From Candidatus Kaiserbacteria bacterium (lineage in GTDB: Bacteria > Patescibacteriota > Minisyncoccia > Phycocordibacterales > UBA2100): a stretch of DNA of 64,000 nucleotides. Under the pieces are notes generated by a model, which was not told the DNA's origin, ran no database searches, and saw only the letters and a list, made by a program, of their open reading frames with translations. Both the position numbers and the translations under genes were made by a program. Shown here piece by piece: positions 1 through 13,448 of this stretch. Location of the stretch: assembly GCA_028286865.1 (NCBI GenBank), contig JAQBQU010000017.1, positions 14,395-78,394 of the forward strand, given 5' to 3'. Every line of letters begins with the position of its first letter. The first letter of the stretch is position 1.

Positions 1-411
1 CGGCATCATGAGCTTGAATGCGCGGCGATCGATGTCGCGGGCTCCGAAGGTGAGAAGTATCACACATGATGCGAGCAATATGATATCGATGAGTGCCACA
101 AATATCGCATGGTAGCCGAAGAAGAATATCGTCCATGCCGCGTTCAATAAGAGATGGACCAAAAAAAGAGGGACCCAGCCGCTGAAGTTTTTCGCGTGGG
201 GATCCTTTTCCCACACGATGATAAGTGCTGCTGCCATCGTCCCGTAGAGCACCATCCATACGATACCGAACGTCCAGCTCGGCGGATTGAACCAGGGCTT
301 CTGGAGCAGGTCGTACCAGGAGCCGACACCGCTGGAAACGAAGAGTGTACCGAGAAATCCGGTGCCGAAACAGGCGAGGAGTGATATACCGGCGCGGATC
401 AATCTGCGCAT
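1..411 (-). CDS. tspO: TspO/MBR tryptophan-rich sensory protein, partial (C-terminus beyond window start)
   Basis: Reverse-strand translation from ATG at 411..409 gives MRRLIRAGISLLACFGTGFLGTLFVSSGVGSWYDLLQKPWFNPPSWTFGIVWMVLYGTMAAALIIVW..., the characteristic TspO pattern (L.KP.W.PP.W.F..VW..LY). The frame is open to position 1 and was not in the supplied ORF track because it has no stop within the window. Confidence 0.75.
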   Translation of the reverse strand, partial: MRRLIRAGISLLACFGTGFLGTLFVSSGVGSWYDLLQKPWFNPPSWTFGIVWMVLYGTMAAALIIVWEKDPHAKNFSGWVPLFLVHLLLNAAWTIFFFGYHAIFVALIDIILLASCVILLTFGARDIDRRAFKLMMP

Positions 412-609
412 ATGTCTCAATAAGACCAAGCTATTGAGATCTGTCAAGCGGACCGGTCGCGCATCGTTTCTTTTGCGGTCAGGAATATTTTTCTTGCCGA
501 CGCAAGAAAAATTTCACGACTCTGGCTCGCGGTCCCGCAAGCTTGCGGGACATCACTCCGCCTTGCGCAAGTGCACAAAAACGCAAAGCAGTTTGCGTTT
601 TTGGCCTTG

Positions 610-683
610 TGCATCCTGCAGGACTCGAACCTGCGACCTTTCGAATGTGAATCGAACGCTCTAACCACCTGAGCTAAGGATGC
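610..683 (-). tRNA. tRNA-Val (anticodon CAC), 74 nt, no encoded CCA
   Basis: Reverse complement folds as a cloverleaf: acceptor GCATCCT/AGGATGC, D-arm GCTC/GAGC, anticodon arm TTCGA-TTCACAT-TCGAA, T-arm GCAGG-TTCGAGT-CCTGC, discriminator A. Confidence 0.85.
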
Positions 684-817
684 GCCATATCTCACACGAA
701 CCTCTATCTACGCGTTCCTCAGCTGCACTCGCATTCAAAGGCCCAGTGAGCTAAGGATGCGTAGGGCGAATTATTGCCCAAAAGCACACATGTCTCAAGC
801 TTGATATACTTCTGCCC

Positions 818-1774
818 ATGGAACCCGTCATTTTCAGCCTCGGAGCCAACGATCATCTGGCGGCACAGATCGCAGCGCGGGTAGGCGTGCCGCTCGGCGA
901 GATGAAGCGACGAACCTTCTCCGACGGGGAGGAGCAGATACAATTCTTGGAGAATCTGCGCGGCAAGAATGTCTTTCTGGTGCAGCCCACGAATCCGCCT
1001 GCCGAGAACTGGACGCGGCTTTTTCTTGCGATCGATGCGGCGCGCGGCGCTTCCGCTCATGAGATCACGGCGGTCATTCCGTATTTCGGCTATGCGCGGC
1101 AGGATCGCAAATCGAAACCGCGTGAGCCGATCTCGGCGCGCGTATTTGCGACCATTCTCGAGTCACTCGGCACCGATCGTGTGCTGACCATGGACTTGCA
1201 CAACGACGCCATCGGCGGGTTCTTCCGCACGACCAACGTCGATTATCTCTACGCGCGGCCGGTGCTGCTCGCACACTTCAAGAACATCTTCAAAGATGCG
1301 CTCGCTTCCGATGATCTCGTCGTGGTCTCTCCGGACGCCGGCGGGGTAGTGAGGGCACAATCCTATGCCAAGCGACTCATGAGATCCGCTGATCTCGCCA
1401 TCATCCATAAAGAGCGCGATATTCCCAATCAGATAGCGCGAATGAAGCTCATCGGTGACGTGAAGGGAAAGATAGCGCTCATAGTCGACGATATGGCCGA
1501 CACCTGCGGGACACTTTCGCGCGCGGCGACGTTGCTGATGGAGAACGGGGCTACCGAAGTCTATGCCACGACGACGCATGGCGTGCTTTCGGGCGCCTCC
1601 AACGAGACGATCGACGCTTCGCCCATCAAGAAACTTTTCATTACGGATACCATTTCGCCCGAGCGCACCCTCTCGGAGAAAATAGAGATCGTATCTGTCG
1701 CCAATGTCTTCGGCGACGCGATCAAGCGCATCGAAACAGGGGAATCGCTCAGCGCGCTCTTCGAGACCGAATAA
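818..1774 (+). CDS. prs: ribose-phosphate pyrophosphokinase (PRPP synthetase)
   Basis: 318 aa; PRPP synthetase architecture with a PRPP-binding loop (DDMADTCGT) and conserved flanks (ITAVIPYFGYARQDRK). Confidence 0.9.
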   Translation: MEPVIFSLGANDHLAAQIAARVGVPLGEMKRRTFSDGEEQIQFLENLRGKNVFLVQPTNPPAENWTRLFLAIDAARGASAHEITAVIPYFGYARQDRKSKPREPISARVFATILESLGTDRVLTMDLHNDAIGGFFRTTNVDYLYARPVLLAHFKNIFKDALASDDLVVVSPDAGGVVRAQSYAKRLMRSADLAIIHKERDIPNQIARMKLIGDVKGKIALIVDDMADTCGTLSRAATLLMENGATEVYATTTHGVLSGASNETIDASPIKKLFITDTISPERTLSEKIEIVSVANVFGDAIKRIETGESLSALFETE

Positions 1775-1826
1775 TTGCCGACCCCTTTTCCGTTCGATTC
1801 CGTCCTATCGGAAACGCTTAGCTTAT

Positions 1827-1898
1827 TCCTCCCGGCCGGAATCGAACCGACATCAATCCCTTCGGAGGGGACTATCCTATCCATTGAACGACGAGAGG
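1827..1898 (-). tRNA. tRNA-Arg (anticodon CCG), 72 nt
   Basis: Reverse complement CCTCTCG-TC-GTTC..GGAT-A-GTCCC-CTCCGAA-GGGAT-TGAT-GTCGG-TTCGATT-CCGGC-CGGGAGG-A. T-arm and anticodon arm are canonical; the D-stem needs two G-U pairs and position 1 is C. Confidence 0.65.
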
Positions 1899-2046
1899 TA
1901 GTGAGGGACAGAACGAATAGTACTTCATTCTTCCCGAGCGCCCCTCTCGAAAGCTTTGCTTAGGAGAGGTTTGGCTGCTATAGATGTGCCGTGTCCACGT
2001 AACAATCGCGACATAGGCGCGTCTATATCTCTGCTACTATATACCT

Positions 2047-2529
2047 ATGAACACAACGACCAAGACCACGACTCTCCTTGCACTGCTGATCGTACTCGTC
2101 ATCGCGGCGGGACTTCTCCTCTCGCTCTCCACCATCGCTCGGCAACAGCGCATCCTTTCTATCGGCTCATTCGAGGACTGCGCGCTCGCGGGGTATCCCA
2201 TCATGGAGTCCTCCCCGGAGCAGTGCCGCACGCCTGACGGCCGGACGTTCGTCAATTCTAAACAGGTTTCCACGAGCACCGATGTTCTCGCCCCGGCAGC
2301 ACCGCAACCGCGCGACTGTGTCATCGGCGGGTGCAGTTCCCAGCTCTGCGGGGAGCGCGGCGACGATCTTATATCGACCTGCATCTATAAAGCGGAGTAC
2401 GCGTGTTACAAACAGTTCTCCGCGTGCGAACGCCAAGCTGACGGTAAGTGCGATTGGACACCGACCCCTCAGCTTTCGCGTTGCATCGCGAATCCTCCCG
2501 CAACATCCGCTCCCAGCACCGTTTACTAA
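2047..2529 (+). CDS. membrane-anchored cysteine-rich small protein (8 Cys in extracytoplasmic part), hypothetical
   Basis: 160 aa; N-terminal TM anchor (LLALLIVLVIAAGLLL) followed by a Cys-rich stretch (CVIGGCSSQLCGE...CIYKAEYACYKQFSACERQADGKCDW). ATG lies 4 nt after a TATATA box, so the start is leaderless-type. GC3-rich. Confidence 0.55.
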   Translation: MNTTTKTTTLLALLIVLVIAAGLLLSLSTIARQQRILSIGSFEDCALAGYPIMESSPEQCRTPDGRTFVNSKQVSTSTDVLAPAAPQPRDCVIGGCSSQLCGERGDDLISTCIYKAEYACYKQFSACERQADGKCDWTPTPQLSRCIANPPATSAPSTVY

Positions 2530-2556
2530 CGCCCCGTGAGGGAGCATACTTTCTGC

Positions 2557-2880
2557 ATGGAGCTTATTCTTTCAGGCATGGCGGCCAGTAGTGGCATTGC
2601 AGAAGGTACTGTTCGAGTTATATCCAGATACGCTCCCAATGCTGATTTTCAGGAAGGAGAGATCCTCGTTACCGAGATGACGGAGCCTGCCATGGTCGCG
2701 ATGATGAATAAGGCGGCCGCTATCGTCACTGATGTCGGTGGGATCACTTCACATGCAGCGATCATCTCTCGTGAACTGGGAGTGCCATGCGTCACCGCGA
2801 CGCGATCAGGCACCGCTACTCTCAAGGACGGCATGAAAGTGCGTGTGGACGGAACGAAAGGCGAAGTGTATTTGATCTGA
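2557..2880 (+). CDS. stand-alone PEP-utilizing-enzyme mobile (phosphohistidine swivel) domain protein
   Basis: About 107 aa (MELILSGMAASSGIAEGTVRVI...VTDVGGITSHAAIISRELGVPCV). The GGxTSHAAIxxRExGxP motif matches the His-domain of PEP synthase/PPDK/rifampin-phosphotransferase-type enzymes. GAGGGAG sits upstream; an alternative GTG start is at 2536. The stop overlaps the next gene's ATG (TGATATG). Confidence 0.7.
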   Translation: MELILSGMAASSGIAEGTVRVISRYAPNADFQEGEILVTEMTEPAMVAMMNKAAAIVTDVGGITSHAAIISRELGVPCVTATRSGTATLKDGMKVRVDGTKGEVYLI

Positions 2881-2881
2881 T

Positions 2882-3961
2882 ATGAAAACGTATCCCGAGT
2901 GGATCGACGAATACGCGCGGATGATACATATGTCCTTCTCGCATATGGTGCCGTCGAGCTGGCATCCCGATGGCTTTGCCGTCCTGCGATTCCTCAACGG
3001 ATCCTTTTTAAAGAAGCTGCATGCTGGGGTAAGGGAACTCCGTGCGCGGCAGATCCCGCTTGAAACCGTCGGTGCAGGATTTCAGCCGTCGAGCCTTCGT
3101 GCGGCCATATATTTTTCAATGCTTGAATATCAGCACTCGCTGCCGAAAGATAAGGCGGCATATAAAGAGATCATAGAGTATCTGGTGAGTGTTCTGAACA
3201 CTGTGATGAAAGAGGATGTATGGGCGTATTCCCGCAACATCGCTCACTCCGCGCATGAGATCAGCGAGATGGTCACGGAGACGCCTTGGAAGAAAGGCGA
3301 CCCGCAGTCGGCCCGGGAGCTCGGGCTTCTGTACAATTCGACGTCTTCGCTGGTGTATTCGCTCTATCACGACTTTTTTCCGCAAGATGCATGCGATGTC
3401 TTCGGCCCCTATGATGTTTCCGCCACACACGGCGAGGGGGCGATACTTCTGGTAAAGAAATTCGTAAAATTGCGACCGGTCGGAGTGTGGTCGGATCTGA
3501 AGAATCAAAAGTATTCCACGATCGAGATCCGGCAGATCTATCAGAATGTCTCGTTCAAGTGCGAGTTCGTCGCAATGCACACCATGTACGAAGGAGATCT
3601 TCGGCAAGGATTGCGTGCATACGCCGTTAAGGTTGACGATACGTGGCTCGAAGACATCGAGGATGTTCGAAACGTGCGTGACGAAGTGACGGTCTTTGCA
3701 CAGGAGCAGGCTAAGGTCCGTGCTCAGCTGACGATACAAGAGATAGGCTACAAGTTCCTCGACCTGCTCTGTTATCAGTACGCCAACTTATTTGAGCTTG
3801 CGGGCATGGATTGGCGTCCTACGGCCGAAATGAAAGATTCGCTCGCGGGCAAAGAGCTTCCGGAGAAGGTGGTCATCGAATCACTTCCCCCGTATGAAGA
3901 GTACGTAGCATCCGCCGACAATGAAGTGTATTGGCTGAAGGATCTGTATACGACCCAATAA
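2882..3961 (+). CDS. hypothetical protein (359 aa), translationally coupled to the swivel-domain gene
   Basis: Long GC3-biased ORF with a 1-nt spacer from the upstream stop. No recognisable motif. A rho-independent terminator follows. Confidence 0.6.
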   Translation: MKTYPEWIDEYARMIHMSFSHMVPSSWHPDGFAVLRFLNGSFLKKLHAGVRELRARQIPLETVGAGFQPSSLRAAIYFSMLEYQHSLPKDKAAYKEIIEYLVSVLNTVMKEDVWAYSRNIAHSAHEISEMVTETPWKKGDPQSARELGLLYNSTSSLVYSLYHDFFPQDACDVFGPYDVSATHGEGAILLVKKFVKLRPVGVWSDLKNQKYSTIEIRQIYQNVSFKCEFVAMHTMYEGDLRQGLRAYAVKVDDTWLEDIEDVRNVRDEVTVFAQEQAKVRAQLTIQEIGYKFLDLLCYQYANLFELAGMDWRPTAEMKDSLAGKELPEKVVIESLPPYEEYVASADNEVYWLKDLYTTQ

Positions 3962-3990
3962 AAAAGCCCGGCGCATTGCGCCGGGCTCTG
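3961..3990. terminator. bidirectional rho-independent terminator (GCCCGGCGC-ATT-GCGCCGGGC)
   Basis: Perfect 9-bp GC stem flanked by an A-run upstream and a T-rich tract downstream, between convergent genes. Confidence 0.7.
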
Positions 3991-4006
3991 TGCATTCGTG
4001 GTGCGA

Positions 4007-4402
4007 CTATTTGTCGCGGATCTGCTTCATCTCGAAAGCCGACAGGTTGATCCACATCTCTTTGCAGAACTCATCGAGGGCGATGAGATCCGGGCGGGCA
4101 ACCGGTTTGTTGCCCGCTACCGTTTCGAGCATTTCAGCCTTCTTGATCAAAAACTCGCAGAGTTCCGGATCAGTCCAGCGACCGTGATGCGGGTAAAAGG
4201 AGAGCATCACTTTATCGACAACTTCGGTGAGCTTGTCGCTCATTGCGTCAGCATGCTGCGGGGCAAGGCGAGCGATCTCTCGCAGAGCCGCAGCTGACTC
4301 ACGTAATGCGCTTGGCTCCCAGTCTTCGTTGCGGCTGCGAAATCCAAGATTCAGTGTTGCTGTCTTGAATAGCTCCGCTTTCAGCAGATCGTTCAGTGCC
4401 AC
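4007..4402 (-). CDS. hypothetical protein (about 131 aa)
   Basis: A GTG start is preceded by GGAGGA at 5-nt spacing (reverse strand ggaggataccGTG). The longer track ORF 4007..4555 would overlap tRNA-Ala, so it was trimmed. GC3-biased. Confidence 0.45.
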   Translation of the reverse strand: MALNDLLKAELFKTATLNLGFRSRNEDWEPSALRESAAALREIARLAPQHADAMSDKLTEVVDKVMLSFYPHHGRWTDPELCEFLIKKAEMLETVAGNKPVARPDLIALDEFCKEMWINLSAFEMKQIRDK

Positions 4403-4518
4403 ACGGTATCCTCCAAATAGGTAAGCTGAGTAGTTTATAACAGCAAAAAAATATATTGTCAATAAATCTTTCAACCAGCACGAGAGTTTGATAGGATACG
4501 CGGACAAGCATTCAGAAC

Positions 4519-4589
4519 GGGCCCATAGTAAAGTGGTATTACGCGTCCATGGCATGGACGAGTGCGGGGTTCGATTCCCCGTGGGTCCA
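4519..4589 (+). tRNA. tRNA-Ala (anticodon GGC), 71 nt
   Basis: GGGCCCA-TA-GTAA-AGTGGTA-TTAC-G-CGTCC-ATGGCAT-GGACG-AGTG-CGGGG-TTCGATT-CCCCG-TGGGTCC-A. The G3:U70 Ala identity pair is present. Confidence 0.85.
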
Positions 4590-4880
4590 CAAAACGCACA
4601 GAAACCTGCTTGAAGCAGGTTTTGTGGTTTTGTGGAAAGCGGAACGATGCCGAGCCAGTGGGCGAGGCCGTGAGCTAGGGTCGTGAAATTTTCCTTGCGA
4701 CGGCAAGGAAAATATTCCTGACCACAAGGTGGAAGCCGTAGCGTTCAGTGGAGGTCGGAGCAGCTTGGCTGCGAGGCGGGGTCGCGCAAATTTGCAGCAG
4801 CAAATTATGTGTGACCACAGCAACAGAAAGACCTGCTTGAAGCAGGTTTTCTGCTTTTGTGGAAAGCGGAACGATGTCGA
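4590..4880 (+). repeat. tRNA-linked modular repeat region
   Basis: Two direct copies of a terminator-like module (ACCTGCTTGAAGCAGGT hairpin + T-rich tail + GTGGAAAGCGGAACGATG) at about 4596-4650 and 4818-4876. They flank a 10-bp hairpin module (GTCGTGAAATTTTCCTTGC-GACG-GCAAGGAAAATATTCCTGACC, about 4676-4724) and a module GGAGCAGCTTGGCTGCGAGGCGGGGTCGCGCAAATTTGCAGCAGCAAATTATGTGTGACC (about 4756-4818). Inverted or partial copies occur at 474-525 and 12221-12285. Confidence 0.7.
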
Positions 4881-5245
4881 GTCGTAGCAAGTGCTACCAT
4901 ATGCTCATGACCGAGAAAATGGGCCGAGAATCGATGAGTGCTGAAAAGCGGACCGCGCTTGCGGTTTTGGGCAGGCGATTAGAGCGCTGGGATATTCTCT
5001 ACGACCTCTCGCTACCTATAGAAGAGCGGAAGCATCGATTAATGCTCGATATTCAGAGCGAACTCAATTCATTGGACGCCATTGACGATGAGGATCAGGA
5101 TATGGACGTAGAGATGGACGAGCTCATTGCCGAGTTGGAGCAGCTCGAAGAACTTGAGAATGATGAGACGGCGGCAGAGGAACTCCGCTCAGAAAGAAAG
5201 GCGCACTACTCGGACCTGATTGATGCATTAGCCTTGGCGGGCTGA
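4874..5245 (+). CDS. acidic coiled-coil hypothetical protein (about 123 aa)
   Basis: The ATG sits inside the second copy of the repeat (GGAAAGCGGAACGATG). The protein is rich in D/E with heptad-like LEELE stretches. A GTG at 4859 is an alternative start. Confidence 0.5.
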   Translation: MSSRSKCYHMLMTEKMGRESMSAEKRTALAVLGRRLERWDILYDLSLPIEERKHRLMLDIQSELNSLDAIDDEDQDMDVEMDELIAELEQLEELENDETAAEELRSERKAHYSDLIDALALAG

Positions 5246-5310
5246 GATAGCGACCCAGATACGAGAGCTTCTTTCCGAAAAAGTGTAGGAACTCCATATT
5301 ATGTAATGTA

Positions 5311-5341
5311 GAAAAGGCGGCCGAAATGGCCGCCTTTTTTA
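5311..5341. terminator. rho-independent terminator (GGCGGCC-GAAAT-GGCCGCC + TTTTTT)
   Basis: 7-bp GC stem plus a U-tract, between convergent genes. Confidence 0.7.
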
Positions 5342-5369
5342 TAGAGAGCCGCGAGGTCGGCTCGAATTG

Positions 5370-5631
5370 TCATCCCCGATATTCCGTCCTTTCTCCAATG
5401 TGCAGTATCGAGTGCGTTTTGGTGCCCGGCGATTCGCCGATAACTGTCAGACCGTGATGCTGAACGATGCGCTCAGCACATTTGATCGAACAATAATCGT
5501 GAACTCCGTTGCCGTCGATTATGTATCGCATCTTGCCGGCCCAAAGCGGACAGATATGAATGTCGCATTCCGGCATGCTGCTTTTCTTGCGCGGGTGATC
5601 AAGATCAAGGCTTAGCTGGCGCTCTGCCATT
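5370..5631 (-). CDS. small zinc-ribbon-like hypothetical protein (about 86 aa)
   Basis: Start MAERQ is preceded by GGAG (ggagaaaaacaATG). Cysteine pairs CDIHIC and CSIKC are present. The longer track ORF was trimmed to the RBS-supported start. Confidence 0.45.
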
Positions 5632-5790
5632 GTTTTTCTCCCATTCCATTCTGAGCCTACATTTTTACTGCGGACCTGGCTAGTCCCGGCCCTTTTAGAC
5701 ACAGATGTTCGTGTGGATAACTGTGAGCGCGTGGGGTATAGTGGTATATACTCTATTGCAGTGGGAGAAAGTGGGAAATCGTACAAGTTT

Positions 5791-6225
5791 ATGTTTATCG
5801 GAGAATACGAACACAGTCTCGACGACAAGAAGCGGATATCACTTCCGAAGGCCTTTCGCACGGGCCTTGGATCAAAAGTAGTGATGACGCGAGGTCTCGA
5901 TAATTGTCTGTTCGTCTATTCACAGAAAGCGTGGGAGAAGGTCGCCGAGAAGCTCTCGGACCTCTCGTTCGCCCAGGCCGATACGCGTGGCTTCAACCGA
6001 TTCATTCTTTCGGGAGCGGTGGAGGTGGAGGTCGACGGTGCAGGACGAATCCTGATACCGGACCATCAGAAGGATTTCGCAGGACTCAAGAAAAATGTCG
6101 TTTTCGCCGGAGTATCGGACCGAGTCGAGGTCTGGGATGCCGCGCGATGGAACACCTACAAAGCCCGGATCGAAAAAAACGCCGACGCACTCGCCGAGAA
6201 ACTCGGAGAGATCGGAGCACTCTAG
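5791..6225 (+). CDS. mraZ: transcriptional regulator MraZ
   Basis: MFIGEYEHSLDDKKRISLPKAFR... shows the duplicated MraZ/SpoVT-AbrB-like halves (second half DGAGRILIPDHQKDFAGL). It is the first gene of the dcw cluster. The upstream in-frame extension to 5713 is judged non-coding. Confidence 0.85.
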   Translation: MFIGEYEHSLDDKKRISLPKAFRTGLGSKVVMTRGLDNCLFVYSQKAWEKVAEKLSDLSFAQADTRGFNRFILSGAVEVEVDGAGRILIPDHQKDFAGLKKNVVFAGVSDRVEVWDAARWNTYKARIEKNADALAEKLGEIGAL

Positions 6226-6264
6226 TGCCACGGGATCGTTGGAGGACTTATTTCACAAATCGTC

Positions 6265-7242
6265 ATGCGCACACGACGCTCACAGTCTTCCAACGATTCG
6301 ATGCCATCAGAGGGTCTGCCACAACAGACCGGCTCGCCCGCACAGGGGCATCGAACAGTTCTTTTACACGAATCGGTCGATTCACTCGACATTCAACCTA
6401 CTGACATCGTGGTCGATGCAACGCTCGGAGGAGCGGGGCACTCGAAACTCATCATGACCCGTTTGGGAAAGGAGGGGACGCTCATCGGCTTTGATGCCGA
6501 TAGCGATGCGATAGAGCGGGGCAAGAGCGCACTTTTAGATACACCAGCATCCGTCCGTTTTGCGAACGCGAATTTCCGCCAGATAAAAGGGGAACTCGAA
6601 CACCTAGGATTAGGACGGATCAATAAAGCGCTTTTCGACCTCGGCTGGAGCTCGTTCCAGCTTTCCGCCGGCAGAGGATTCTCATTCCTATCTGATGAGC
6701 CGCTCTCAATGGCATATGCAAATTCGCCAGCTGGCGAAAGTGCGCTTACCGCAGAGACGATCGTGAATGAATGGAGTGAGGAATCGATCGCAGATGTGAT
6801 ATTCGGCTGGGGCGAGGAGCGCTATTCGCGCCGTATTGCCAAGCGCATCGTCGAAGAGCGATCTGTCAGACCGATCAAGACCGCGCGAGAGCTGGGCGAC
6901 CTTGTGAAAGCGGCGGTGCCGAGCGCCTATCGATACGGGCGCATTCATCCGGCGACCAAGACCTTCCAGGCACTGCGCATTGCGGTCAACGACGAGCTAG
7001 GCGCGCTCACCGAAGCACTCAAGGCTACATGGCAGATACTCGAGCCGGGAGGACGCATTGCCGTCATTTCGTTCCACTCTATCGAAGACCGACTCGTGAA
7101 GCAGCAATTTGCCGCCTGGGTCGCAGACGGCAGCGGTGAAAAGATCACGAAGAAGCCCATCACTCCCTCGACCGAAGAAGTCGCGTCCAATCCGCGCTCA
7201 CGAAGCGCAAAACTGAGAGTCATACAAAAAATAACTATTTAA
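6265..7242 (+). CDS. rsmH: 16S rRNA (cytosine1402-N4)-methyltransferase RsmH/MraW
   Basis: VDATLGGAGHS SAM-binding motif and the DLGWSSFQL motif, in conserved dcw position after mraZ. The start may be at ATG 6301. Confidence 0.85.
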   Translation: MRTRRSQSSNDSMPSEGLPQQTGSPAQGHRTVLLHESVDSLDIQPTDIVVDATLGGAGHSKLIMTRLGKEGTLIGFDADSDAIERGKSALLDTPASVRFANANFRQIKGELEHLGLGRINKALFDLGWSSFQLSAGRGFSFLSDEPLSMAYANSPAGESALTAETIVNEWSEESIADVIFGWGEERYSRRIAKRIVEERSVRPIKTARELGDLVKAAVPSAYRYGRIHPATKTFQALRIAVNDELGALTEALKATWQILEPGGRIAVISFHSIEDRLVKQQFAAWVADGSGEKITKKPITPSTEEVASNPRSRSAKLRVIQKITI

Positions 7243-7244
7243 AT

Positions 7245-7637
7245 ATGAGCCATAAGATCAGCAAGTACACACCATCGATCTTCCAGGGAACCCTGGAGCT
7301 CTCGCGTGCCCGCGGTATCACGCTCTCCTCCGAGCACCCGCTCGAGCAGGTGATCACCAAGGTGCTTTTCATAACGCTCGCGGTCCTTTTGGCCGGCTAT
7401 ATCTATTTTGTCGGCTCATCGGTCATGAATATCATCGCGCGCAAGGAAGCCGATGCGCAGACGACCCAGATCCAAAGCTCGATCGCGGTGCTTGAACAGC
7501 AGTATTTTGCGGTCGGCCAGTCGGTCAGCCCGGAGAAGCAGGCGAGTCTCGGCCTTTCACCGATCTCGAACACCGATTACGTGTACCGCCCGGGTAATGC
7601 CGCCTCGGCCGGCACTATCGCAAGCAACGCCATCTAA
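7245..7637 (+). CDS. cell division protein FtsL-like (single TM + coiled coil)
   Basis: 130 aa with one TM helix (VLFITLAVLLAGYIYFV) then a helical region, sitting between rsmH and ftsI. Confidence 0.6.
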   Translation: MSHKISKYTPSIFQGTLELSRARGITLSSEHPLEQVITKVLFITLAVLLAGYIYFVGSSVMNIIARKEADAQTTQIQSSIAVLEQQYFAVGQSVSPEKQASLGLSPISNTDYVYRPGNAASAGTIASNAI

Positions 7638-7649
7638 AACTGGCTTATA

Positions 7650-9374
7650 ATGCGGAGTATGAGAAGCACTCTGATACTCCGTGCCCGCATTTTGTGCGGC
7701 TTCTTTATTTGTGCGGCGATCCTGCTCGTCGTCCGACTCTACTTCGTGCAGATCGTGCACGGCGAGGAATATACGAAAGACGCGACGGGCCAATATACCG
7801 AATTCGCGCCCGACACCGCGGCGCGCGGAGATATCTATTTTACGACCAAGGACGGCACCCCCGTAGCGGCGGCCGTGATGCAATCCGGATGGCGCATTGC
7901 CATCACCCCGAAGATGATCACGGATCCCGCGCAGGTCTATACGCAGCTCAATGCCATCACTCCGATCGACCACCAGAAATTCGTCGCGAGTGCGGCCAAA
8001 ACATCAGACCCCTACGAAGAAGTGGCGTTCCGCGTGGACAATGCCGCAGCGCTCAAGATCAAGGCGCTCAAGATCCCGGGGGTGCTTTTGGTGCAGGACG
8101 AATGGCGTAATTACCCGGCCGCAGGTCTTGCCGCGCAGGCCATCGGCTTCGTGGGCTACAAAGGTGACACCAAAGTGGGCGTGTACGGACTCGAGAAGCA
8201 GTGGAACGATACATTGGTCGAGACCTCGTCGGGTCTCTACGTGAATCCCTTCGCGGAAATATTCACCAATCTGCAGGATGTCCTTTCTACCGACCCCGCA
8301 TCTCACGAGGGAAGCATCATCACCTCTATCGAGCCGACGGTGCAGGCCCAGCTCGAAAAGACGCTCGATGATGTGATGCGTACCTACACGCCGAATCTCG
8401 CGGGCGGCATCATCATGGACCCGCATACCGGCGAGATCGTTGCCATCGGTGCTCGTCCGTCGTTCGACCCTAATACGTATAACACCGTTGATGATCCGGC
8501 CGTATTCGACGACCCGCTCGTCGAGGGCCGCTACGAGCTCGGCAGCATTATGAAGCCGCTGACCATGGCGACCGGTATCGATGCCGGTGCCGTGACGGAG
8601 CAGACGACCTACAACGACACCGGATGCATCATGCGGTCGGGCAAAAAAGTGTGTAACTTCGACTTCAAGGCACGCGGCGTGATACCGGTGCAGGAAATTT
8701 TGAATCAATCGCTCAACGTGGGGGCCACCTATGTGGCGGAGACGACCGGGCACGGTGTATTCACAAGCTATATAAAGAAGCTCGGTTTCGGGGAAAAGAC
8801 GGGGGTGGATCTGCCGGGAGAGATCTCGGGCAATATCGCACAGCTTGGCGAGGGCAACGGGCCCGATGTGAATTATGCTGCGGCATCATTCGGGCAGGGC
8901 ATCTCGGTCACACCGATCGAAATGATCCGCGCGCTGGCAACGCTCGCCAACGGCGGGAAGCTCCCAAATCCCCATGTCGTGACGGGAATTCGTTTTGATA
9001 ACGGCGTCACGCGCACTATTCCCACCGCGCCCGAGACACAGGTGTACAAACAGTCGACGACCGACACGCTCACCAACATGCTCACGACCGTGTATGACAA
9101 GGCGCTCCTGAAGGGGGCCATCAAGCTCGACCATTATTCTATCGCGGCGAAAACCGGTACCGCGCAGATCGCGATCCCCGGACAGGGCTATTACACCGAC
9201 CGCTACTTGCACTCGTTCTTCGGATACTTTCCGGCGCACGACCCGCGCTTCATCATCTTCCTCTTTGCGGTCAATCCGCACGGACAGGAATATGCCTCCG
9301 CGACCCTCGCGCGACCCTTCTTCGGCATCGCCCAGTTCATGATAAATTACTACGATATCCCGCCCGATAGGTGA
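7650..9374 (+). CDS. ftsI: penicillin-binding protein transpeptidase (FtsI/PBP3-like, class B)
   Basis: 574 aa with an N-terminal TM anchor and the SxxK (SIMKP), SxN (SLN) and KTG (KTGTA) motifs. Confidence 0.9.
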   Translation: MRSMRSTLILRARILCGFFICAAILLVVRLYFVQIVHGEEYTKDATGQYTEFAPDTAARGDIYFTTKDGTPVAAAVMQSGWRIAITPKMITDPAQVYTQLNAITPIDHQKFVASAAKTSDPYEEVAFRVDNAAALKIKALKIPGVLLVQDEWRNYPAAGLAAQAIGFVGYKGDTKVGVYGLEKQWNDTLVETSSGLYVNPFAEIFTNLQDVLSTDPASHEGSIITSIEPTVQAQLEKTLDDVMRTYTPNLAGGIIMDPHTGEIVAIGARPSFDPNTYNTVDDPAVFDDPLVEGRYELGSIMKPLTMATGIDAGAVTEQTTYNDTGCIMRSGKKVCNFDFKARGVIPVQEILNQSLNVGATYVAETTGHGVFTSYIKKLGFGEKTGVDLPGEISGNIAQLGEGNGPDVNYAAASFGQGISVTPIEMIRALATLANGGKLPNPHVVTGIRFDNGVTRTIPTAPETQVYKQSTTDTLTNMLTTVYDKALLKGAIKLDHYSIAAKTGTAQIAIPGQGYYTDRYLHSFFGYFPAHDPRFIIFLFAVNPHGQEYASATLARPFFGIAQFMINYYDIPPDR

Positions 9375-10666
9375 TCTCCATGCAATTTCTCAAGCAATGC
9401 GTCATTTTGATACTCACGTGGGAAGCGCGCCTGGTGCTGCTTCGACACAAGCCGCGTATCATCGCGGTGACCGGGTCTGTCGGTAAGACGACCACCAAGG
9501 ACGCGATATTCAGCGCGCTCGCCGGTGTTGAGCACGTCCGCAAGAGCGCCAAGAGTTTCAACAGTGATGTCGGTGTACCGCTCACCATACTCGGTCTCGA
9601 CAATGCATGGAGCAATCCGTTCAAATGGCTCATCAATATCTTCAAGGGCGCGCTCGTGATCGTACAGAGCGATTATCCGAAATGGCTCGTGCTCGAAGTG
9701 GGCGCCGACCGACCGGGAGATATCAAGCGCATTGCGCAGTGGCTGCGCCCCGATATTGCGGTCATTACCGGTGTCCCTGAAATACCGGTGCATGTGGAAT
9801 ATTTTAATTCTCCCGAAGATGTGGTGCGCGAGAAGCGCGCGCTGGCGGAGCACCTGAAGCCGGGCGGCAAGCTCATCCTCAACGGCGACGATGCGCGCAT
9901 GCGCGAGATCCACGGCGCATTCCGCGGGTACAGCGTCACCTACGGCATCGAGAACAACAACGAATTTTTCGCATCGCACGAAGAAGTGCTCTACGAGAAC
10001 GGACTGCCCGCAGGCATGCAGTTCCGCGTCGACCACAAAGGCTCATCGGTGCCGGTCTCGGTTTACGGAGCGCTCGGCCGTCCGCGCATCTATGCCGCAC
10101 TTGCGGCCATCGCGGTGGCTGATGTGGTCGGCATCGACACGGTGACTGCCGCGAGTGCACTCGCCGGATGGGAAGCACCGCCGGGTCGTGTGCGTATCAT
10201 CCAAGGTATGAAAGGAAGCATGCTTATCGATGATACGTATAATTCTTCTCCATCCGCGGCGCTTGCGGCACTCGATACACTGCGGGACACGAGAGCGACA
10301 CGTCGCATCGCCGTCCTCGGCGACATGCTCGAGCTCGGCAAATATTCTAAAGAGGCGCACAAGCAAGTGGGCGAGCGAGCGGCATCATGCGCGGATATTC
10401 TGATCACCATCGGATTCCGGGCCCGCGCGATGGCAGAAGGCGCGCTCGACGGCGGTATGCGGGATGAGAGCATCCGGCAATACGAGCGCGACGACTCAGC
10501 CCGCGCGACCGATGAGCTTCTGGCACAGGTGAAAGAAGGCGATGTCATTCTGGTAAAGGGCTCGCAAGGTATGCGTATGGAGCGTATTGTGCGCGCGCTC
10601 ATGAACGACCCCGAGCAGGCGCCCGATCTTCTGGTCCGCATGGACCGCGAGTGGCAATTTAAATGA
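9371..10666 (+). CDS. murF: UDP-MurNAc-tripeptide--D-alanyl-D-alanine ligase MurF (short N-terminal domain)
   Basis: Mur ligase P-loop AVTGSVGKTTTKD appears at residue about 33, and the MurF-type motif NSDVGVPLT is present. It overlaps the ftsI stop by 4 nt. Confidence 0.75.
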   Translation: MISMQFLKQCVILILTWEARLVLLRHKPRIIAVTGSVGKTTTKDAIFSALAGVEHVRKSAKSFNSDVGVPLTILGLDNAWSNPFKWLINIFKGALVIVQSDYPKWLVLEVGADRPGDIKRIAQWLRPDIAVITGVPEIPVHVEYFNSPEDVVREKRALAEHLKPGGKLILNGDDARMREIHGAFRGYSVTYGIENNNEFFASHEEVLYENGLPAGMQFRVDHKGSSVPVSVYGALGRPRIYAALAAIAVADVVGIDTVTAASALAGWEAPPGRVRIIQGMKGSMLIDDTYNSSPSAALAALDTLRDTRATRRIAVLGDMLELGKYSKEAHKQVGERAASCADILITIGFRARAMAEGALDGGMRDESIRQYERDDSARATDELLAQVKEGDVILVKGSQGMRMERIVRALMNDPEQAPDLLVRMDREWQFK

Positions 10667-10687
10667 TCTCCGCATTGTTTAAGGCGA

Positions 10688-10698
10688 GCGTGTATAAT
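10688..10698 (+). promoter_or_regulatory. extended -10 promoter element TGTATAAT
   Basis: TGnTATAAT consensus sits 25 nt upstream of ATG 10723 with GGAGGGAAG between them. Confidence 0.45.
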
Positions 10699-10722
10699 GC
10701 AGACTGAAACGGAGGGAAGAAC

Positions 10723-10890
10723 ATGTATCAGCCGAATGTGCCACGGCGCAGTATTCAGTCGATCGAAGATCGGCGACGCGAACAGTTCCAGGAGGGTCTT
10801 CGTCGGGTGGCTCGCGAGCAAGATGCGGCGAGCCGCAAACGTCCCGCTCGGGCATCTGCCACGCGCAAGAAGCGCGTACGCTCAAACTAG
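10723..10890 (+). CDS. small basic protein (55 aa), hypothetical
   Basis: Not in the ORF track because it is under 60 aa. A strong SD (GGAGGGAAG-N5-ATG) and the extended -10 promoter lie upstream. MYQPNVPRRSIQSIEDRRREQFQEGLRRVAREQDAASRKRPARASATRKKRVRSN. A terminator follows. Confidence 0.5.
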   Translation: MYQPNVPRRSIQSIEDRRREQFQEGLRRVAREQDAASRKRPARASATRKKRVRSN

Positions 10891-10915
10891 CTCATTTATT
10901 TTATGAGCGACAAAA

Positions 10916-10953
10916 TAAAAACGCGGGCCACTAAGCCCGCGTTTTAATTTTTG
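10916..10953. terminator. bidirectional rho-independent terminator (GCGGGC-CACTAA-GCCCGC)
   Basis: An A-run precedes and a T-run follows a 6-bp GC stem. It could serve the small + gene and the convergent purH-like gene. Confidence 0.65.
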
Positions 10954-10961
10954 GTCGTTGC

Positions 10962-11954
10962 CTAATGACGGAAGTGCCGTACCCCTGTCATCACCATGGC
11001 GATGCCGTGCTTGTTGGCCGCCTCAATGACCGCCTCATCCTTCTTTGAGCCGCCGGGCTGAATGACGCAGGTCGCGCCTGCATTGACGACCTCATCCAAG
11101 CCGTCCGCGAAGGGGAAGAACGCATCGGATGCCGCGACAGAGCCGTGAGTGCGCACTTTGAGCTCTTTGGCCGCGCGCCCTGCATCCATAGCCTTTCGTG
11201 CGCCGGTGATCGCGGCATCCACACGGCTGACCTCACCGCCGCCGATGCCGACCGTGGCGCCGCCTTTGGCGTACACGATCGCGTTGGACCTCACATGCTT
11301 TGCGACGGTGAATGCAAAACGCATGTCGGACATCTCGTGCTCTGTCGGCTGCTTGAGCGTGACCACGCGCATCTCGTCGCCGAAGACGATAGAGTCGCGC
11401 GTCTGTGCCACGATCCCGCCGGCGACGCAGGTGTACACGAGCCCGTCCGCTTGCGGAGGTGATATTCCTCCCGCGACCAAAAGGCGGATGTCCGGCTTCT
11501 GCTGCAGTGCACGGATCGCCGCTTCGGATGCATAGGGCGTGATGATGACTTCCACGAAGCCCTCCATCATGATCCTTGCAAGCTTTTCATCGAGCAGACG
11601 GTTGATGGCGATGACGCCGCCGAATGCCGAAAGCGGATCGCAGGTGCGCGCTCGGATGAAGGCGGTCATCTGGTCGGCACTTATTGCTGCGCCGCACGGC
11701 GTTTTGTGCTTCACGATGACGCATGCAGGAGTGCTGAACTCGGCGACGCACTCATATGCAGAGTCGGCATCGGTGATGTTGTTTTGCGACAACTCCTTGC
11801 CTTGCATGACCTTCGAGTTGATGACGCAGAATCGCTTTTCGCCGGTGAGATATATCGCCGCGGACTGATGCGGGTTCTCACCATAGCGGAGCATCTGCTT
11901 GCGCACGAGGCTCAGGTTCAGTGTTTCGGGGAAGATCTTGTCGGCTTGTTCCAT
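10962..11954 (-). CDS. purH: AICAR transformylase domain protein (PurH-like, lacks IMP cyclohydrolase domain)
   Basis: 330 aa with the LRYGENPHQ motif and the PurH C-terminal end ...[11 protein letters not shown]. The start is supported by AGGAAAGCC-ATG. No MGS-like IMPCH domain lies upstream, because the next feature is tRNA-Glu. Confidence 0.75.
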
Positions 11955-12081
11955 GGCTTTCCTCGCCTGGCTGGAGTGAAGGTTCCTTATTGCACTCTAC
12001 CCTCGGCGGCAGGGAATTCAAAACGTGCCTTATCAGCTCTTCCGTTTTGTTGGCTTATACATTACAATCGCTCAGTCAGCA

Positions 12082-12153
12082 GGCCCCATCGTCTATCGGC
12101 TAGGACACATCCTTCTCAAGGATGGAAGCGGGGTTCGATTCCCCGTGGGGTCA
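12082..12153 (+). tRNA. tRNA-Glu (anticodon CTC), 72 nt
   Basis: GGCCCCA-TC-GTCT-ATCGGCTA-GGAC-A-CATCC-TTCTCAA-GGATG-GAAG-CGGGG-TTCGATT-CCCCG-TGGGGTC-A. The TACAAT -10 box lies 15 nt upstream. Confidence 0.85.
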
Positions 12154-12187
12154 AAATTTTAAGCGAAGCGTATTTTGAACCCAAGTA

Positions 12188-12304
12188 GGGTTCGGGGAAC
12201 CCTACGTCGGGGAATCGAAAGACGGAGCAGCTTGGCTGCGAGTCGGGGTCGCGCAAAATTGCAGCTGCAATTTATGTGTGACCGATTCCCCGTGGGGAGA
12301 GAAA
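12188..12304 (+). repeat. tRNA-linked repeat module plus partial duplication of the tRNA-Glu 3' end
   Basis: Perfect 9-bp hairpin GTAGGGTTC-GGG-GAACCCTAC at 12188-12208. Module GGAGCAGCTTGGCTGCGAGTCGGGGTCGCGCAAAATTGCAGCTGCAATTTATGTGTGACC is homologous to 4756-4818. A 15-nt copy of the tRNA 3' end (CGATTCCCCGTGGGG) follows at 12289-12303. Confidence 0.7.
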
Positions 12305-12355
12305 TCGAACTGCAGGAGACACTCGGGAACCGTGTTAGCATAATTTGAAAGAAAT

Positions 12356-12940: not shown

Positions 12941-13057
12941 CCTGGTCTCAACTATCTTCCCAAGCTCCTGCCATTGATACAGTTCCGTCAACAATTGGTT
13001 CCAATTCCATCCCCGTGGGAGCTCGTGCCCGTAGCGAAAATGCTAAAATAGCTCTAT

Positions 13058-13416: not shown

Positions 13417-13448
13417 CGACCCGATATTTTCAGGTATACAATAGCCAT

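Follow-up and report, generated by a model that had tools for sequence, protein, structure and literature searches.

We propose that positions 4590-4880 hold a tandem array of three units, two complete and the third truncated, and that these belong to a Patescibacteria-wide family of structured, non-autonomous mobile insertion elements; to this reading we assign a probability of about 0.6. The array trails tRNA-Ala(GGC) within the window, by which we mean the whole 64-kb stretch of DNA analysed. It belongs to what is apparently an undescribed, large family of small folded elements present in many CPR genomes, and the mobility of this family is inferred. In a preliminary description of the site, three structured modules had been recognised at positions that we confirm to within a few bases: a terminator-like hairpin (i), a second hairpin (ii) and a further module (iii).

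Structure of the element and its copies in the window

Each unit begins with a trailer hairpin (H0) that takes in the 3′ end of the upstream tRNA at its base, and continues with a core element of 70-95 nt that folds into a three-way junction. The core reads, in order, a linker TYGNRAGNC, helix P2 with a GGA/GA internal loop, CGG, and a long helix P3 that ends in TGAC(C) and holds a conserved G.U pair and one bulged A. The following features were identified in the window, with R1 and R2 denoting covariance models:

4519-4590, + strand: tRNA-Ala(GGC) (ARAGORN; Rfam tRNA, 56.6 bits)
4587-4635, + strand: trailer hairpin H0 of tRNA-Ala, the core of repeat A1 (sequence, MFE fold)
4597-4654, + strand: direct repeat A1, 90% identical to 4824-4881 (alignment)
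4631-4723, + strand: element copy 1, B-type (R1, 32.7 bits, E=3e-5, model positions 1-70)
4747-4816, + strand: element copy 2, C-type, module (iii) (R1, 90.0 bits; R2, 87.2 bits, E=2.7e-22)
4824-4881, + strand: direct repeat A2, 90% identical to A1 (terminator-like match at 4828-4850)
609-683, - strand: tRNA-Val(CAC) (ARAGORN; Rfam tRNA)
572-613, - strand: trailer hairpin H0 of tRNA-Val (sequence, fold)
477-569, - strand: element copy 3, B-type (R1, 32.8 bits; R2, 44.7 bits, E=1.8e-10)
12082-12153, + strand: tRNA-Glu(CTC) (ARAGORN; Rfam tRNA)
12151-12217, + strand: spacer from tRNA-Glu to the element (sequence, fold)
12214-12283, + strand: element copy 4, C-type (R1, 88.4 bits; R2, 85.6 bits, E=7.7e-22)
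12283-12297, + strand: direct copy of the tRNA-Glu 3′ part from T-loop position C56 (longest common substring, 15 nt)

The gene for tRNA-Ala ends in ...GGGTCCAC without an encoded CCA, and its last bases build the base of a long H0 stem (CCACAAAAC...GTTTTGTGG) whose inner part is terminator-like (match 4601-4623). This hairpin (ACAGAAA..CTGC..GCAG..TTTCTG..TTTGTG) also lies 3′ of tRNAs at four loci outside the window (L005, L018, L066, L070). A repeat search recovered module (i) as two 58-nt copies (4597-4654 and 4824-4881; 90% identical), both of which score as terminator-like in a consensus scan (4601-4623 and 4828-4850) and meet the criterion for an intrinsic terminator, having 10-bp stems with TTTT..TTTTGT behind them; the match is to the consensus alone, and function is not shown. 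Module (i) is not an element in its own right: it is the hairpin of the tRNA trailer, which either precedes a unit or has been duplicated along with it. Repeat A1 corresponds to H0 plus the first 24 nt of a B-type element (linker, GGAACG, ATG), and A2 to a second H0 copy plus a 24-nt 5′ fragment of a B-type element. A2 could be a duplicated target or a truncated third unit, and the pair is readable either as a target duplication or as tandem units. The start codon of an ORF at 4874-5245 falls within A2 (ATG at 4874); neither this ORF nor the one at 12356-12940, both of which adjoin the arrays, has a Pfam match.

Module (ii) (4680-4723, + strand; 477-520, - strand) is, at its first position, the P3 helix of copy 1, which runs from a linker TGTGGAAAGC through GGAACG-ATG-[P2 hairpin]-CGTGAG and CTAGG to P3 (GTCGTG...CCTGACC) and scores 44.7 bits with R2 when filters are off (E=1.8e-10). 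Its 44-nt pattern matches twice in the window and never in 100 shuffles, and the likeness between its two copies (78%) extends to 108 nt. Module (iii) (4756-4816 and 12223-12283; 61 nt, 93% identical) lies within copies 2 and 4, the former comprising a linker AGTGGAGGTC, P2 GGAGCAGCTTGGCTGCGAG, GCGG and P3 GGTCGCGCAAATTTGC-AGCA-GCAAATT-A-TGTGTGACC. A covariance model built only from C-type relatives of module (iii) finds both copies of module (ii) over their full length; modules (ii) and (iii), initially described as different, are therefore the B and C subtypes of one element. Flanking sequence is not common to the copies of the window.

Copy 3 has the same orientation relative to tRNA-Val as copy 1 has relative to tRNA-Ala, and follows an H0 in which TGCAC at the tRNA end pairs with GTGCA above an inner stem AAAAACGCAAA/TTTGCGTTTTT. 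The spacer behind tRNA-Glu contains an H0 (TCAAAAT...ATTTTGA) that includes the last 3 nt of the tRNA, a further hairpin GTAGGGTTC-GGG-GAACCCTAC, and a 'guide' sequence CGGGGAATCG (12208-12217) whose reverse complement exactly matches the T-loop/T-stem CGATTCCCCG; the 5′ flank of this element forms a 10-bp Watson-Crick run with the 3′ flank. The direct copy downstream, CGATTCCCCGTGGGG, is identical to 12136-12150 and is decayed beyond that point (AGAG versus TCA). Scanning the window with the covariance model gave four copies that all trail tRNAs, and none beyond these were found in the 64 kb with filters off. Three of the four tRNAs of the window carry a copy, the exception being tRNA-Arg (1827-1898, - strand), which lacks any module.

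Covariation and distribution of the family

The compensatory changes reported between the window copies are real, both in module (ii) (TTTTCC/GGAAAA versus TTTTTC/GAAAAA) and in module (iii) (AAATTTGC/GCAAATT versus AAAATTGC/GCAATTT). Two copies alone would constitute weak evidence, and it is the wider family that makes the evidence strong. In 30 relatives collected only through a 19-mer in P2, 96.9% of cells in P3 are paired and 11 of its 16 pairs have changed on both sides, values that none of 500 shuffles reaches. Over the whole fold, the 30 sequences have 97.4% of their cells paired and changes on both sides in 12 of 23 pairs, and in an alignment of 69 copies the figures are 96.9% and 20 of 23; slid registers give pairing of only 30-48%. 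The general criterion for a structured RNA or single strand, that pairs are kept by compensatory change in independent sequences, is therefore met, and the functional structure originally inferred from covariation within the window gains much stronger support from outside sequences. The 69-copy alignment has conserved ends (TYGNRAGNC-GGAG and YGTGAC(C)) and two hairpins. One P3 pair is G.U in 54 of 61 sequences of this alignment; since it would be C.A on the opposite strand, the fold forms on the tRNA-sense strand only and hence needs a single-stranded intermediate, either a read-through tRNA trailer RNA or one DNA strand. An apparent rewriting of the inner P3 base (GACC/GGTC) in nested copies proved to be ordinary sub-lineage covariation plus a 4-nt junction microhomology.

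The GGA/GA loop is k-turn-like, yet its bulge is 1 nt instead of 3. Further comparisons of the conserved junction with SRP RNA, RNase P RNA and tmRNA, and with the sarcin-ricin loop, k-turn and hairpin ribozyme, led us to reject these candidates, which fit only short strings.

In a genome-collection scan of 596 Gb, the P2 19-mer was found at 41 loci in approximately 33 Patescibacteria assemblies, compared with about four matches calculated by chance, and the element was not found in any phylum beyond Patescibacteria. At each of these loci the 19-mer is followed by the same P3 with a differing apical stem. The junction is very highly conserved and retains an exact 19-mer across CPR classes, and Saccharibacteria, Kaiserbacteria, Paceibacterota, Nomurabacteria and Adlerbacteria all have near-identical cores. 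Copy number is four in the 64-kb window and up to four per 8-kb locus elsewhere. Within-genome clustering is modest and only weakly supported (the nearest neighbour is from the same genome for 7-8 of 37 copies; expected 1.5, permuted maximum 8-9), and we make no claim of recent bursts. As a separate observation, an unrelated family of repeats, from Acidimicrobiia, also makes use of this P2 hairpin, a hint that a recognition module and its enzyme may be widespread and so far unrecognised.

The placement at tRNA 3′ ends noted in the window holds family-wide: a co-oriented tRNA ends 5-152 nt upstream of 31 of 58 arrays, where approximately 2.5% is expected by chance, compared with an opposite-strand tRNA upstream in only four and a tRNA downstream in four. 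One copy lies 81 nt behind a 5S rRNA. Copies away from tRNAs have varied neighbours and either orientation, and some are antisense between protein genes (e.g. L003, L067). Elements at the same tRNA can be homologous across CPR classes, as at tRNA-Ser(GCT) (L048/L081 versus L026) and tRNA-Ile(TAT) (L075 versus L074).

No match to the element was obtained from Rfam 15 (4227 covariance models), which at E up to 1 returned only tRNAs and sub-threshold noise in window positions 1-13000, and nothing at 4631-4816, 477-569 or 12214-12283; at the gathering score, 20 element-bearing loci yielded only rRNA, tRNA and one group I intron. The literature consulted on Patescibacteria and Saccharibacteria repeats, MITEs, T-loop duplications and structured-RNA surveys contained no description of the element; most subscription journals were not covered, and a prior description is not excluded. 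A phage or prophage origin was rejected given that three scans of viral contigs produced only chance sub-motif matches, with no covariance-model match in 278 kb.

Apparent signatures of insertion and alternative readings

Direct repeats flank approximately 19 of 59 copies (score at least 12; control median 6), and in 14 copies the element is followed by the 3′ part of the tRNA, repeated directly from C56/G57 onwards (11 by computed comparison; three, L042, L081 and L091, read directly). In seven copies the repeat spans C56/G57 to the tRNA 3′ end without a mismatch (18-21 nt; L002, L048, L052, L055 (two), L075, L042), and shorter or partly decayed repeats occur at the tRNA-Glu of the window (15 nt), L092, L095, L075b, L081, L091 and a third L055 copy. 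The repeat has decayed in its acceptor part at the window tRNA-Glu, L026, L062 and L075b. Duplication lengths across the family are 5, 8, 15-21, 31 and 58 nt.

Often the direct repeat of the target reappears as its reverse complement in the 5′ flank. Of 60 copies, 21 have at least 6 bp of complementarity between the 5′ and 3′ flanks and 10 have at least 8 bp, against 6% and 0.8%, respectively, of permuted pairs, with a tRNA-specific maximum of 14 nt at L062; class-2 copies have no flank pairing and thus no P1, the helix formed by the two flanks. We rejected a tRNA gene with a T-loop intron, because the two flanks are reverse complements of each other, loop and acceptor bases included (window GGGGAATCG, L062 ATGAGGGAATCGAA); moreover, the 5′ flank does not represent the 5′ strand of a T-stem, and the upstream sequence contains no 5′ strand of an acceptor stem.

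Other signatures include nested copies, one within another (L025, L047, L070, L064), and a copy inserted into a GH1 gene at its 5′ end (L035), where a 31-nt duplication restores the ORF. Orthologous tRNA-Val and tRNA-Ala genes are empty in related Kaiserbacteria (L101, L103, L104; 80-83% Prs identity), and the tRNA-Lys(CTT) locus bears different insertion classes in L005, L041, L052 and L087. Within one genome, similar cores with tRNA-specific flanks occur at different tRNAs (window Ala versus Glu, 93%; three L055 copies). At three loci a single cargo gene of 1-1.8 kb lies between the tRNA and the unit, encoding, according to the translated ORFs, an APH-like kinase (L042), a secreted protein (L081) and an ABC1 kinase (L091), with no recombinase among them.

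From these signatures we infer the following model. New copies would land just 3′ of hairpin-bearing sites, chiefly at the 3′ end or in the T-loop of tRNA genes, and landing would duplicate 5-58 nt of the target, typically from C56/G57 to the tRNA 3′ end, so that the upstream tRNA stays intact and the downstream copy decays. The stretch immediately 5′ of the core, being complementary to the duplicated target, would let the flanks close the junction as P1, and the element would be transcribed within tRNA trailers and fold on the tRNA-sense strand. How the fold is selected is a matter of speculation; we infer that it may be recognised by a trans-acting enzyme of the host or element, as yet unidentified. 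Equally speculative is how the 5′ flank comes to complement the target; we infer that this happens in the course of insertion, through either fold-back copying or correction of a heteroduplex against the target. We raise only tentatively, as possible but doubtful, that the family is a new mobile-element class or mobile ribozyme with a closing helix templated by its own target, in which an RNA or single-stranded DNA core is joined at the tRNA T-loop or 3′ end, making direct and inverted target copies, such that insertion is target-programmed without a fixed guide.

Several observations speak against mobility. No autonomous partner is known and no mobilising gene adjoins the copies: transposase, integrase and reverse transcriptase genes were not found beside any copy in the 64-kb window or in the 8-kb pieces examined elsewhere. 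The 5-58 nt range of duplications is unlike that of any single known transposase, the homology of same-tRNA elements across CPR classes could mean ancient, vertically kept functional RNA modules, and an exact cross-class 19-mer suits a functional RNA or a site of protein binding better than a selfish repeat in decay. The modest within-genome clustering and the two possible readings of A1/A2 count on the same side.

The alternative that survives best, although we regard it as rather unlikely, is a cis-acting functional RNA module of the 3′ trailers of tRNAs and other stable RNAs, involved in processing, stability or regulation and spread by ordinary duplication only. The 'guide' 5′ flank would then pair with the T-arm/3′ end of the upstream tRNA or, as P1, with the downstream decoy copy, and the three-way junction would be an aptamer-like or protein-binding switch over tRNA maturation. 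The sense-strand-specific fold with its conserved G.U pair, the extreme conservation of the junction, the homologous units at the same tRNA in different classes and the copy behind 5S rRNA are all consistent with such a module, as are a topology that recalls small aptamers (P1 from flanks plus two hairpins, ~70 nt) and a decoy copy that keeps the P1 part while its acceptor part decays. However, it does not readily account for nested copies, copies antisense between protein genes, copies in an ORF 5′ end with a compensating duplication, related genomes without the element at the same tRNAs, or class-2 copies without flank pairing, and no consistent gene class is tied to the element.

A new self-cleaving or self-ligating ribozyme, with its scissile site at the P3/P1 boundary (the element/target junction) and a role in trailer processing or its own RNA-level mobility, appears improbable to us. 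A compact three-way junction whose helices covary and whose junction nucleotides are invariant, together with the absence of a linker between P3 and P1, would suit catalysis; the theta ribozymes (PMC10879173) are a precedent for small ribozymes right after tRNAs, and RNA-based elements abound in Patescibacteria (PMC13011429). Activity data are absent, though, no Rfam 15 ribozyme matches even at E up to 1, class-2 copies lack P1, and the element lies 5-152 nt from the tRNA end rather than abutting it.

We likewise give little credence to the copies being att-site scars or miniature cis-mobilisable cassettes of T-loop-integrating integrase islands, with the core as a folded attP arm (compare integron attC and CTX-phage attP) and the recombinase supplied in trans. 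Direct repeats from T-loop to tRNA 3′ end are as expected at T-loop attB sites (Ms6, PMC1762012), and the three loci with a cargo gene, the arrays and a strand-specific hairpin with an extrahelical base, as in attC, point in the same direction. Yet an integrase is absent from every unit and cargo, many copies lack a tRNA-derived flank, there is no match in 278 kb of viral contigs, and GTTRRRY-type boxes are not visible. Furthermore, a fixed attP is disfavoured by the very similar cores at different tRNAs of one genome, each with tRNA-specific flanks, which would be impossible for such a site.

Neutral repeats from a recent segmental duplication in this genome, with chance compensatory changes, would fit a window with just two copies per module at 78-93% identity but are already refuted, because near-identical cores occur across the five Patescibacteria groups named above, the same element, with covariation at 20 of 23 pairs, is present in ~33 other assemblies that span several CPR classes, and the copies share no flanking sequence.

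Patescibacteria genomes are tiny, with little room for junk, and yet up to three quarters of a region's tRNA genes have the element in their trailers, and its core is almost identical across classes of very ancient divergence. If mobile, it represents a tRNA-targeting insertion system that spares its target gene through duplication and whose enzyme is unidentified; if a functional RNA, it is a phylum-wide tRNA-linked motif absent from Rfam. The covariance model from this analysis makes this question testable in cultivated Saccharibacteria. The element also explains assembly breaks at tRNA loci in these organisms, and a separate assembly of the source organism breaks at the array.

Comparison with known systems

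REP/BIME/REPIN elements and bacterial MITEs (Correia, RUP, ERIC) are non-coding, multi-copy, intergenic, hairpin-forming sequences of <300 nt that lie in transcribed 3′ regions, form mosaics or arrays, show presence/absence polymorphism and are presumed to be mobilised in trans. The element resembles them in being small, non-coding, multi-copy and intergenic, in its hairpins, its location in transcribed 3′ regions and its mosaics or arrays, and it meets the criterion of presence/absence polymorphism given the empty tRNAs of L101, L103 and L104. In contrast to these families, it is an asymmetric three-way junction rather than a simple palindrome, shows a strong preference, in a fixed orientation, for the 3′ side of tRNA genes, has long and variable target duplications (5-58 nt) and a 5′ flank complementary to the target, and keeps a nearly identical core across CPR classes. 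Among the candidates first put forward for the site (a tRNA-cotranscribed sRNA, a processing or termination signal, or a MITE family), a MITE-like mobile family co-transcribed with tRNAs fits best, whereas a classical MITE does not, because the element lacks terminal inverted repeats: family-wide repeats of this kind are missing, the flank complementarity is locus-specific and target-derived (e.g. from the tRNA T-loop), and target-site duplications are not of a short fixed length (5, 8, 15-21, 31, 58 nt).

Integrative elements can also use the tRNA T-loop as attB, as in mycobacteriophage Ms6 (PMC1762012). Similar to these, a direct repeat from T-loop to 3′ end brackets the insert, the tRNA stays intact and a few copies carry cargo; the seven exact copies satisfy the criterion of direct repeats of the tRNA 3′ segment for tRNA-integrating islands. 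The criterion of an integrase inside the element is not met, either in units of 75-200 nt or in the three cargo cases, and one core type occurs with matching flanks at many tRNAs of one genome; many copies lie at non-tRNA sites. Integron attC sites and cassettes and CTX-type folded attP share with the element structure over sequence in distal stems, strand specificity and an extrahelical base, as well as serial arrays and now and then a single gene. However, the element has no R/L core boxes and no adjoining IntI, its three-way junction has invariant sequence, and its target is tRNA, not attI or dif; with no GTTRRRY in 69 copies and two hairpins, it does not fit the attC definition (R''/R' sites RYYYAAC ... 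GTTRRRY, single bulged hairpin).

Among RNA elements, riboswitches are expected in the 5′ UTR of a consistent gene set, whereas most copies follow tRNAs and the rest have varied neighbours and orientation. The theta (HDV-like) ribozymes, which adjoin phage tRNAs (PMC10879173), are likewise small conserved structured RNAs immediately 3′ of tRNA genes; the element differs in having no HDV-like double pseudoknot and no Rfam match, and in being chromosomal in CPR and not found in the viral contigs scanned (278 kb). Nor does it qualify as another known self-cleaving ribozyme (hammerhead, HDV-like/theta, twister, pistol, hatchet or hairpin), since Rfam at E up to 1 gave no match to any of these; the consensus shows no CUGAUGA/GAAA cores and no nested double pseudoknot. 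Finally, group I introns of >200 nt reside inside the anticodon loop of Patescibacteria tRNA genes (PMC13011429). Unlike these introns, the element lies outside the mature tRNA, measures 70-95 nt and has no Intron_gpI match, but it is similarly a structured insertion tied to tRNA genes in the same phylum.

tRNA trailers in the window

ARAGORN and Rfam place four tRNA genes in the window, and every repeat of the preliminary description was recovered there, with 2 matches per search pattern against 0 in shuffles.

Features of the window (H0, trailer hairpin, formerly module (i); B-type and C-type, formerly modules (ii) and (iii); core, a 70-95-nt fold; guide, 5'-flank sequence complementary to the tRNA target)
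609-683, minus strand: tRNA-Val
1827-1898, minus strand: tRNA-Arg
4519-4590, plus strand: tRNA-Ala
12082-12153, plus strand: tRNA-Glu
4597-4654 and 4824-4881: direct repeat of 58 nt, 90% identity
4756-4816 and 12223-12283: repeat of 61 nt, 93% identity
4620-4727 against 473-580: inverted match of 108 nt, 78% identity
Behind tRNA-Ala, plus strand, in order: H0 (4587-4635); a B-type core (4631-4723); a C-type core (4747-4816), after a short gap; a further H0 together with the opening 24 nt of a B core (4824-4881)
Behind tRNA-Val, minus strand, in order: H0, B core (477-569)
Behind tRNA-Glu, plus strand, in order: H0, hairpin, guide, C core, 15-nt copy of the tRNA 3' part

Alignment of the copies bears out the compensatory changes claimed for modules (ii) and (iii), and both copies of module (i), which had been called terminator-like, match a terminator consensus scan. 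The latter hairpin (ACAGAAA..TTTCTG..TTTGTG) is seen again behind other tRNAs in other genomes. The three trailers fold far more stably than shuffles (z = -7.1, -3.4 and -4.9), and the element in them matches no family of Rfam 15 (positions 1-13000, up to E=1). The piece at 4824-4881 is either a duplicated target or a truncated third unit. tRNA-Arg has the next gene only 52 nt away and lacks the element; genes nearby are ordinary chromosomal ones (prs, mraW, ftsI, murE, purH), and the Prs protein shows 100% identity to one from a Candidatus Kaiserbacteria MAG.

The first ATG of an ORF at 4874-5245 (123 aa, without Pfam match) lies inside the B-type fragment of the second direct-repeat copy (A2, 4824-4881; GGAACGATG); the ORF may therefore owe its start codon and ribosome-binding site to the element remnant, unless it really begins further downstream. 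A promoter-like site (GAGACA-17-CATAAT, 12316-12344) stands between the Glu element and an ORF at 12356-12940, and G+C falls to 0.475 in 12001-14000.

A phylum-wide structured family on the 3' side of tRNAs

A 19-mer (GGAGCAGCTTGGCTGCGAG) from helix P2, the initial hairpin of module (iii), was used to scan 185,579 species genomes. The scan found 89 stretches, compared with ~4 calculated by chance, and 41 of these lie in Patescibacteria assemblies (Saccharibacteria, Kaiserbacteria, Paceibacterota, Nomurabacteria, Adlerbacteria, Zambryskibacteria and Minisyncoccia), where the 19-mer leads into GCGG-GGTCGCGCAA, then a variable 7-bp stem, a 4-nt loop and TTATGYGTGACC. The second hairpin is absent from the matches outside Patescibacteria.

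The fold was tested on an alignment of 30 cores (A4) as a 2-bp helix closing the GGA/GA internal loop, a 5-bp P2 and a 16-bp P3 with one bulged A. Pairing holds in 97.4% of cells, with double-sided changes at 12/23 pairs; 0/500 shuffles equalled these values, and slid registers paired only 30-46%. Since P3 lies outside the search pattern, its covariation is an independent result. Within a 69-sequence alignment, 20/23 pairs covary, all five P2 pairs among them, and one P3 pair is G.U in 54/61 sequences; the fold is therefore restricted to the strand carrying the tRNA sense.

R1, a covariance model built from A4, finds 69 copies at E < 1e-4 in Patescibacteria loci. The preliminary description's division into separate modules (ii) and (iii) does not stand: they are one element, as R1, derived from module-(iii) relatives, covers both module-(ii) regions over the whole model (477-569 and 4631-4723, 32.8 bits). 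Two features alone set the B subtype apart: an additional hairpin within P2 (GGAGCG-ATG-[hairpin]-C-CGCGAG) and a longer P3 tip. With filters off, a second covariance model, R2, detects exactly the four cores listed above in the whole window and nothing else above 13 bits; it gave 0 matches on 278 kb of viral contigs containing exact sub-motifs and 0 on 46 kb of related Kaiserbacteria.

The element strongly prefers the 3' side of tRNAs. Among loci picked by motif irrespective of tRNA content, a co-oriented tRNA 3' end lies 5-152 nt upstream in 31/58 arrays, against ~2.5% by chance in the same loci; an opposite-strand tRNA lies upstream in only 4 of 58 and a tRNA downstream in 4. Arrays trail at least eleven different tRNA identities, one copy stands behind a 5S rRNA, and others are found after stop codons or, in either orientation, between genes. 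The 5S rRNA of locus L038 belongs to an rRNA operon (3113-7349) that also includes a tRNA and a 23S gene interrupted by a group I intron (6121-6343); the copy lies 81 nt past the 5S rRNA, at the tip of a long hairpin.

MAGs of Acidimicrobiia and Ilumatobacteraceae have an abundant repeat of another kind that is also centred on the exact P2 19-mer (consensus GGGCGAGCGCCGCTGCGAAGCGGCGGCGGCGAGCTCGGAGGCGAGG-[19-mer]-CCGAGCCCGAG, without P3; loci L006, L007 at 3746-4804, L009, L010, L014, L019, L022, L030, L044, L051, L057-L060, L065, L080 and L089), with 11 tandem copies of period 104 nt in L007. On sequence alone, the sharing of this hairpin between two phyla points to a common recognition module.

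Signs of insertion

Target duplications, flank complementarity, nesting and presence/absence polymorphism were all observed. Flanking direct repeats score >= 12 in ~19/59 copies (control median 6), and fourteen copies, eleven from repeat comparison and three read directly (L042, L081, L091), have behind them the upstream tRNA's 3' part in direct orientation, from T-loop C56/G57 onwards. In L002, L048, L052, L055 (two copies), L075 and L042 this repeat matches the tRNA perfectly for 18-21 nt, up to its 3' end; the window Glu copy reads CGATTCCCCGTGGGG and is decayed beyond, as is the acceptor part in L026, L062 and L075b, so the downstream copy does not work as an acceptor.

The 5' flank adjoining the core matches the repeat start in reverse complement (10 nt in window Glu, 14 nt in L062), and complementary flank-flank runs of >= 6 bp occur in 21/60 copies against 6% of permuted pairs; a helix P1 could thus close the junction. 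The 5' flank is not the T-stem 5' strand, because it is complementary to loop and acceptor bases. In a second class, to which window Ala and Val belong, the long hairpin H0 is the upstream partner, its base built with the last tRNA bases, and the repeat is CAC plus trailer (e.g. CACAAGTG in L041).

Long locus-specific hairpins carry a copy at their tip in L016, L038 and L069; in L078 a copy occupies a hairpin loop and 5 nt are duplicated; and copies lie within other copies in L025, L047, L070 and L064. One copy interrupts the 5' end of a GH1 beta-glucosidase gene (L035, ~950-1130, minus strand), where 31 nt (ATG...TGGG) are duplicated, restoring the ORF, so that an intact start is kept downstream; the orthologous gene of L064 carries three nested elements at its 5' end (5600-5900, minus strand). 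Elsewhere (L033, 6030-6170, minus strand) an insertion immediately follows a hairpin spanning the stop codon, and the duplicated copy retains the C-terminal peptide GKVTLK* via synonymous changes. Relatives with 80-83% Prs identity lack the element: what comes after their orthologous tRNA-Val or tRNA-Ala(GGC) is a plain terminator, a further tRNA or a promoter.

Three loci hold a single gene of 1-1.8 kb between tRNA and unit, the tRNA 3' repeat bracketing the whole; the right end of each cargo has a short and degenerate tRNA-end copy.

Cargo genes, from reading of translations
L042, 107-1205, minus strand: APH-like kinase
L081, 3588-4560, plus strand: 272-aa secreted protein
L091, 531-2323, minus strand: ABC1/UbiB-like kinase on the opposite strand

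At 4697-4790 of L081, a tRNA-Ser 3' copy, a 5'-truncated B-type P3 and a third, diverged tRNA-Ser 3' fragment succeed one another, suggesting serial insertions at one tRNA. Behind a B-type unit, a short sequence resembling the 5' start of another B unit occurs at window 455-476 (minus strand, AAAGAAACGATG) and downstream of 2673 in L005 (minus strand, GCGCGGAGAGAT); truncated units may therefore be a frequent ending of arrays. An independent Logan assembly of the same organism (L137) ends inside tRNA-Ala, at ~window 4548, right at the array, consistent with the element breaking assemblies.

Inferred mobility and known systems

We infer that the family is mobile but non-autonomous and is transcribed as part of tRNA trailers. 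Recognition by a trans-acting factor would maintain the fold, and the inverted target copy might, speculatively, stem from fold-back copying around the junction or from guide:target heteroduplex correction. A purely selfish element is opposed by the extreme conservation of the junction sequence and by the homology of same-tRNA units across CPR (Patescibacteria) classes, and rivals are therefore retained, none of them incompatible with mobility. A cis-acting RNA function is unlikely, though the strongest of these; a new ribozyme, or folded att sites of trans-mobilised cassettes, would each be a distinctly long shot.

The element is absent from Rfam 15, and a literature search, with subscription journals mostly outside its coverage, found no description. 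We rate it as a kind of small structured interspersed element; a categorically new mechanism is less likely than not, yet a real possibility. Some traits are held in common with REP/BIME and MITE repeats, although conserved TIRs and a fixed TSD are missing; with T-loop-integrating islands (PMC1762012), although there is no internal integrase; with integron attC sites, without their R boxes; and with tRNA-adjacent theta ribozymes (PMC10879173), without the HDV fold. Group I introns, reported from Patescibacteria tRNAs (PMC13011429), are distinct from the element as well.
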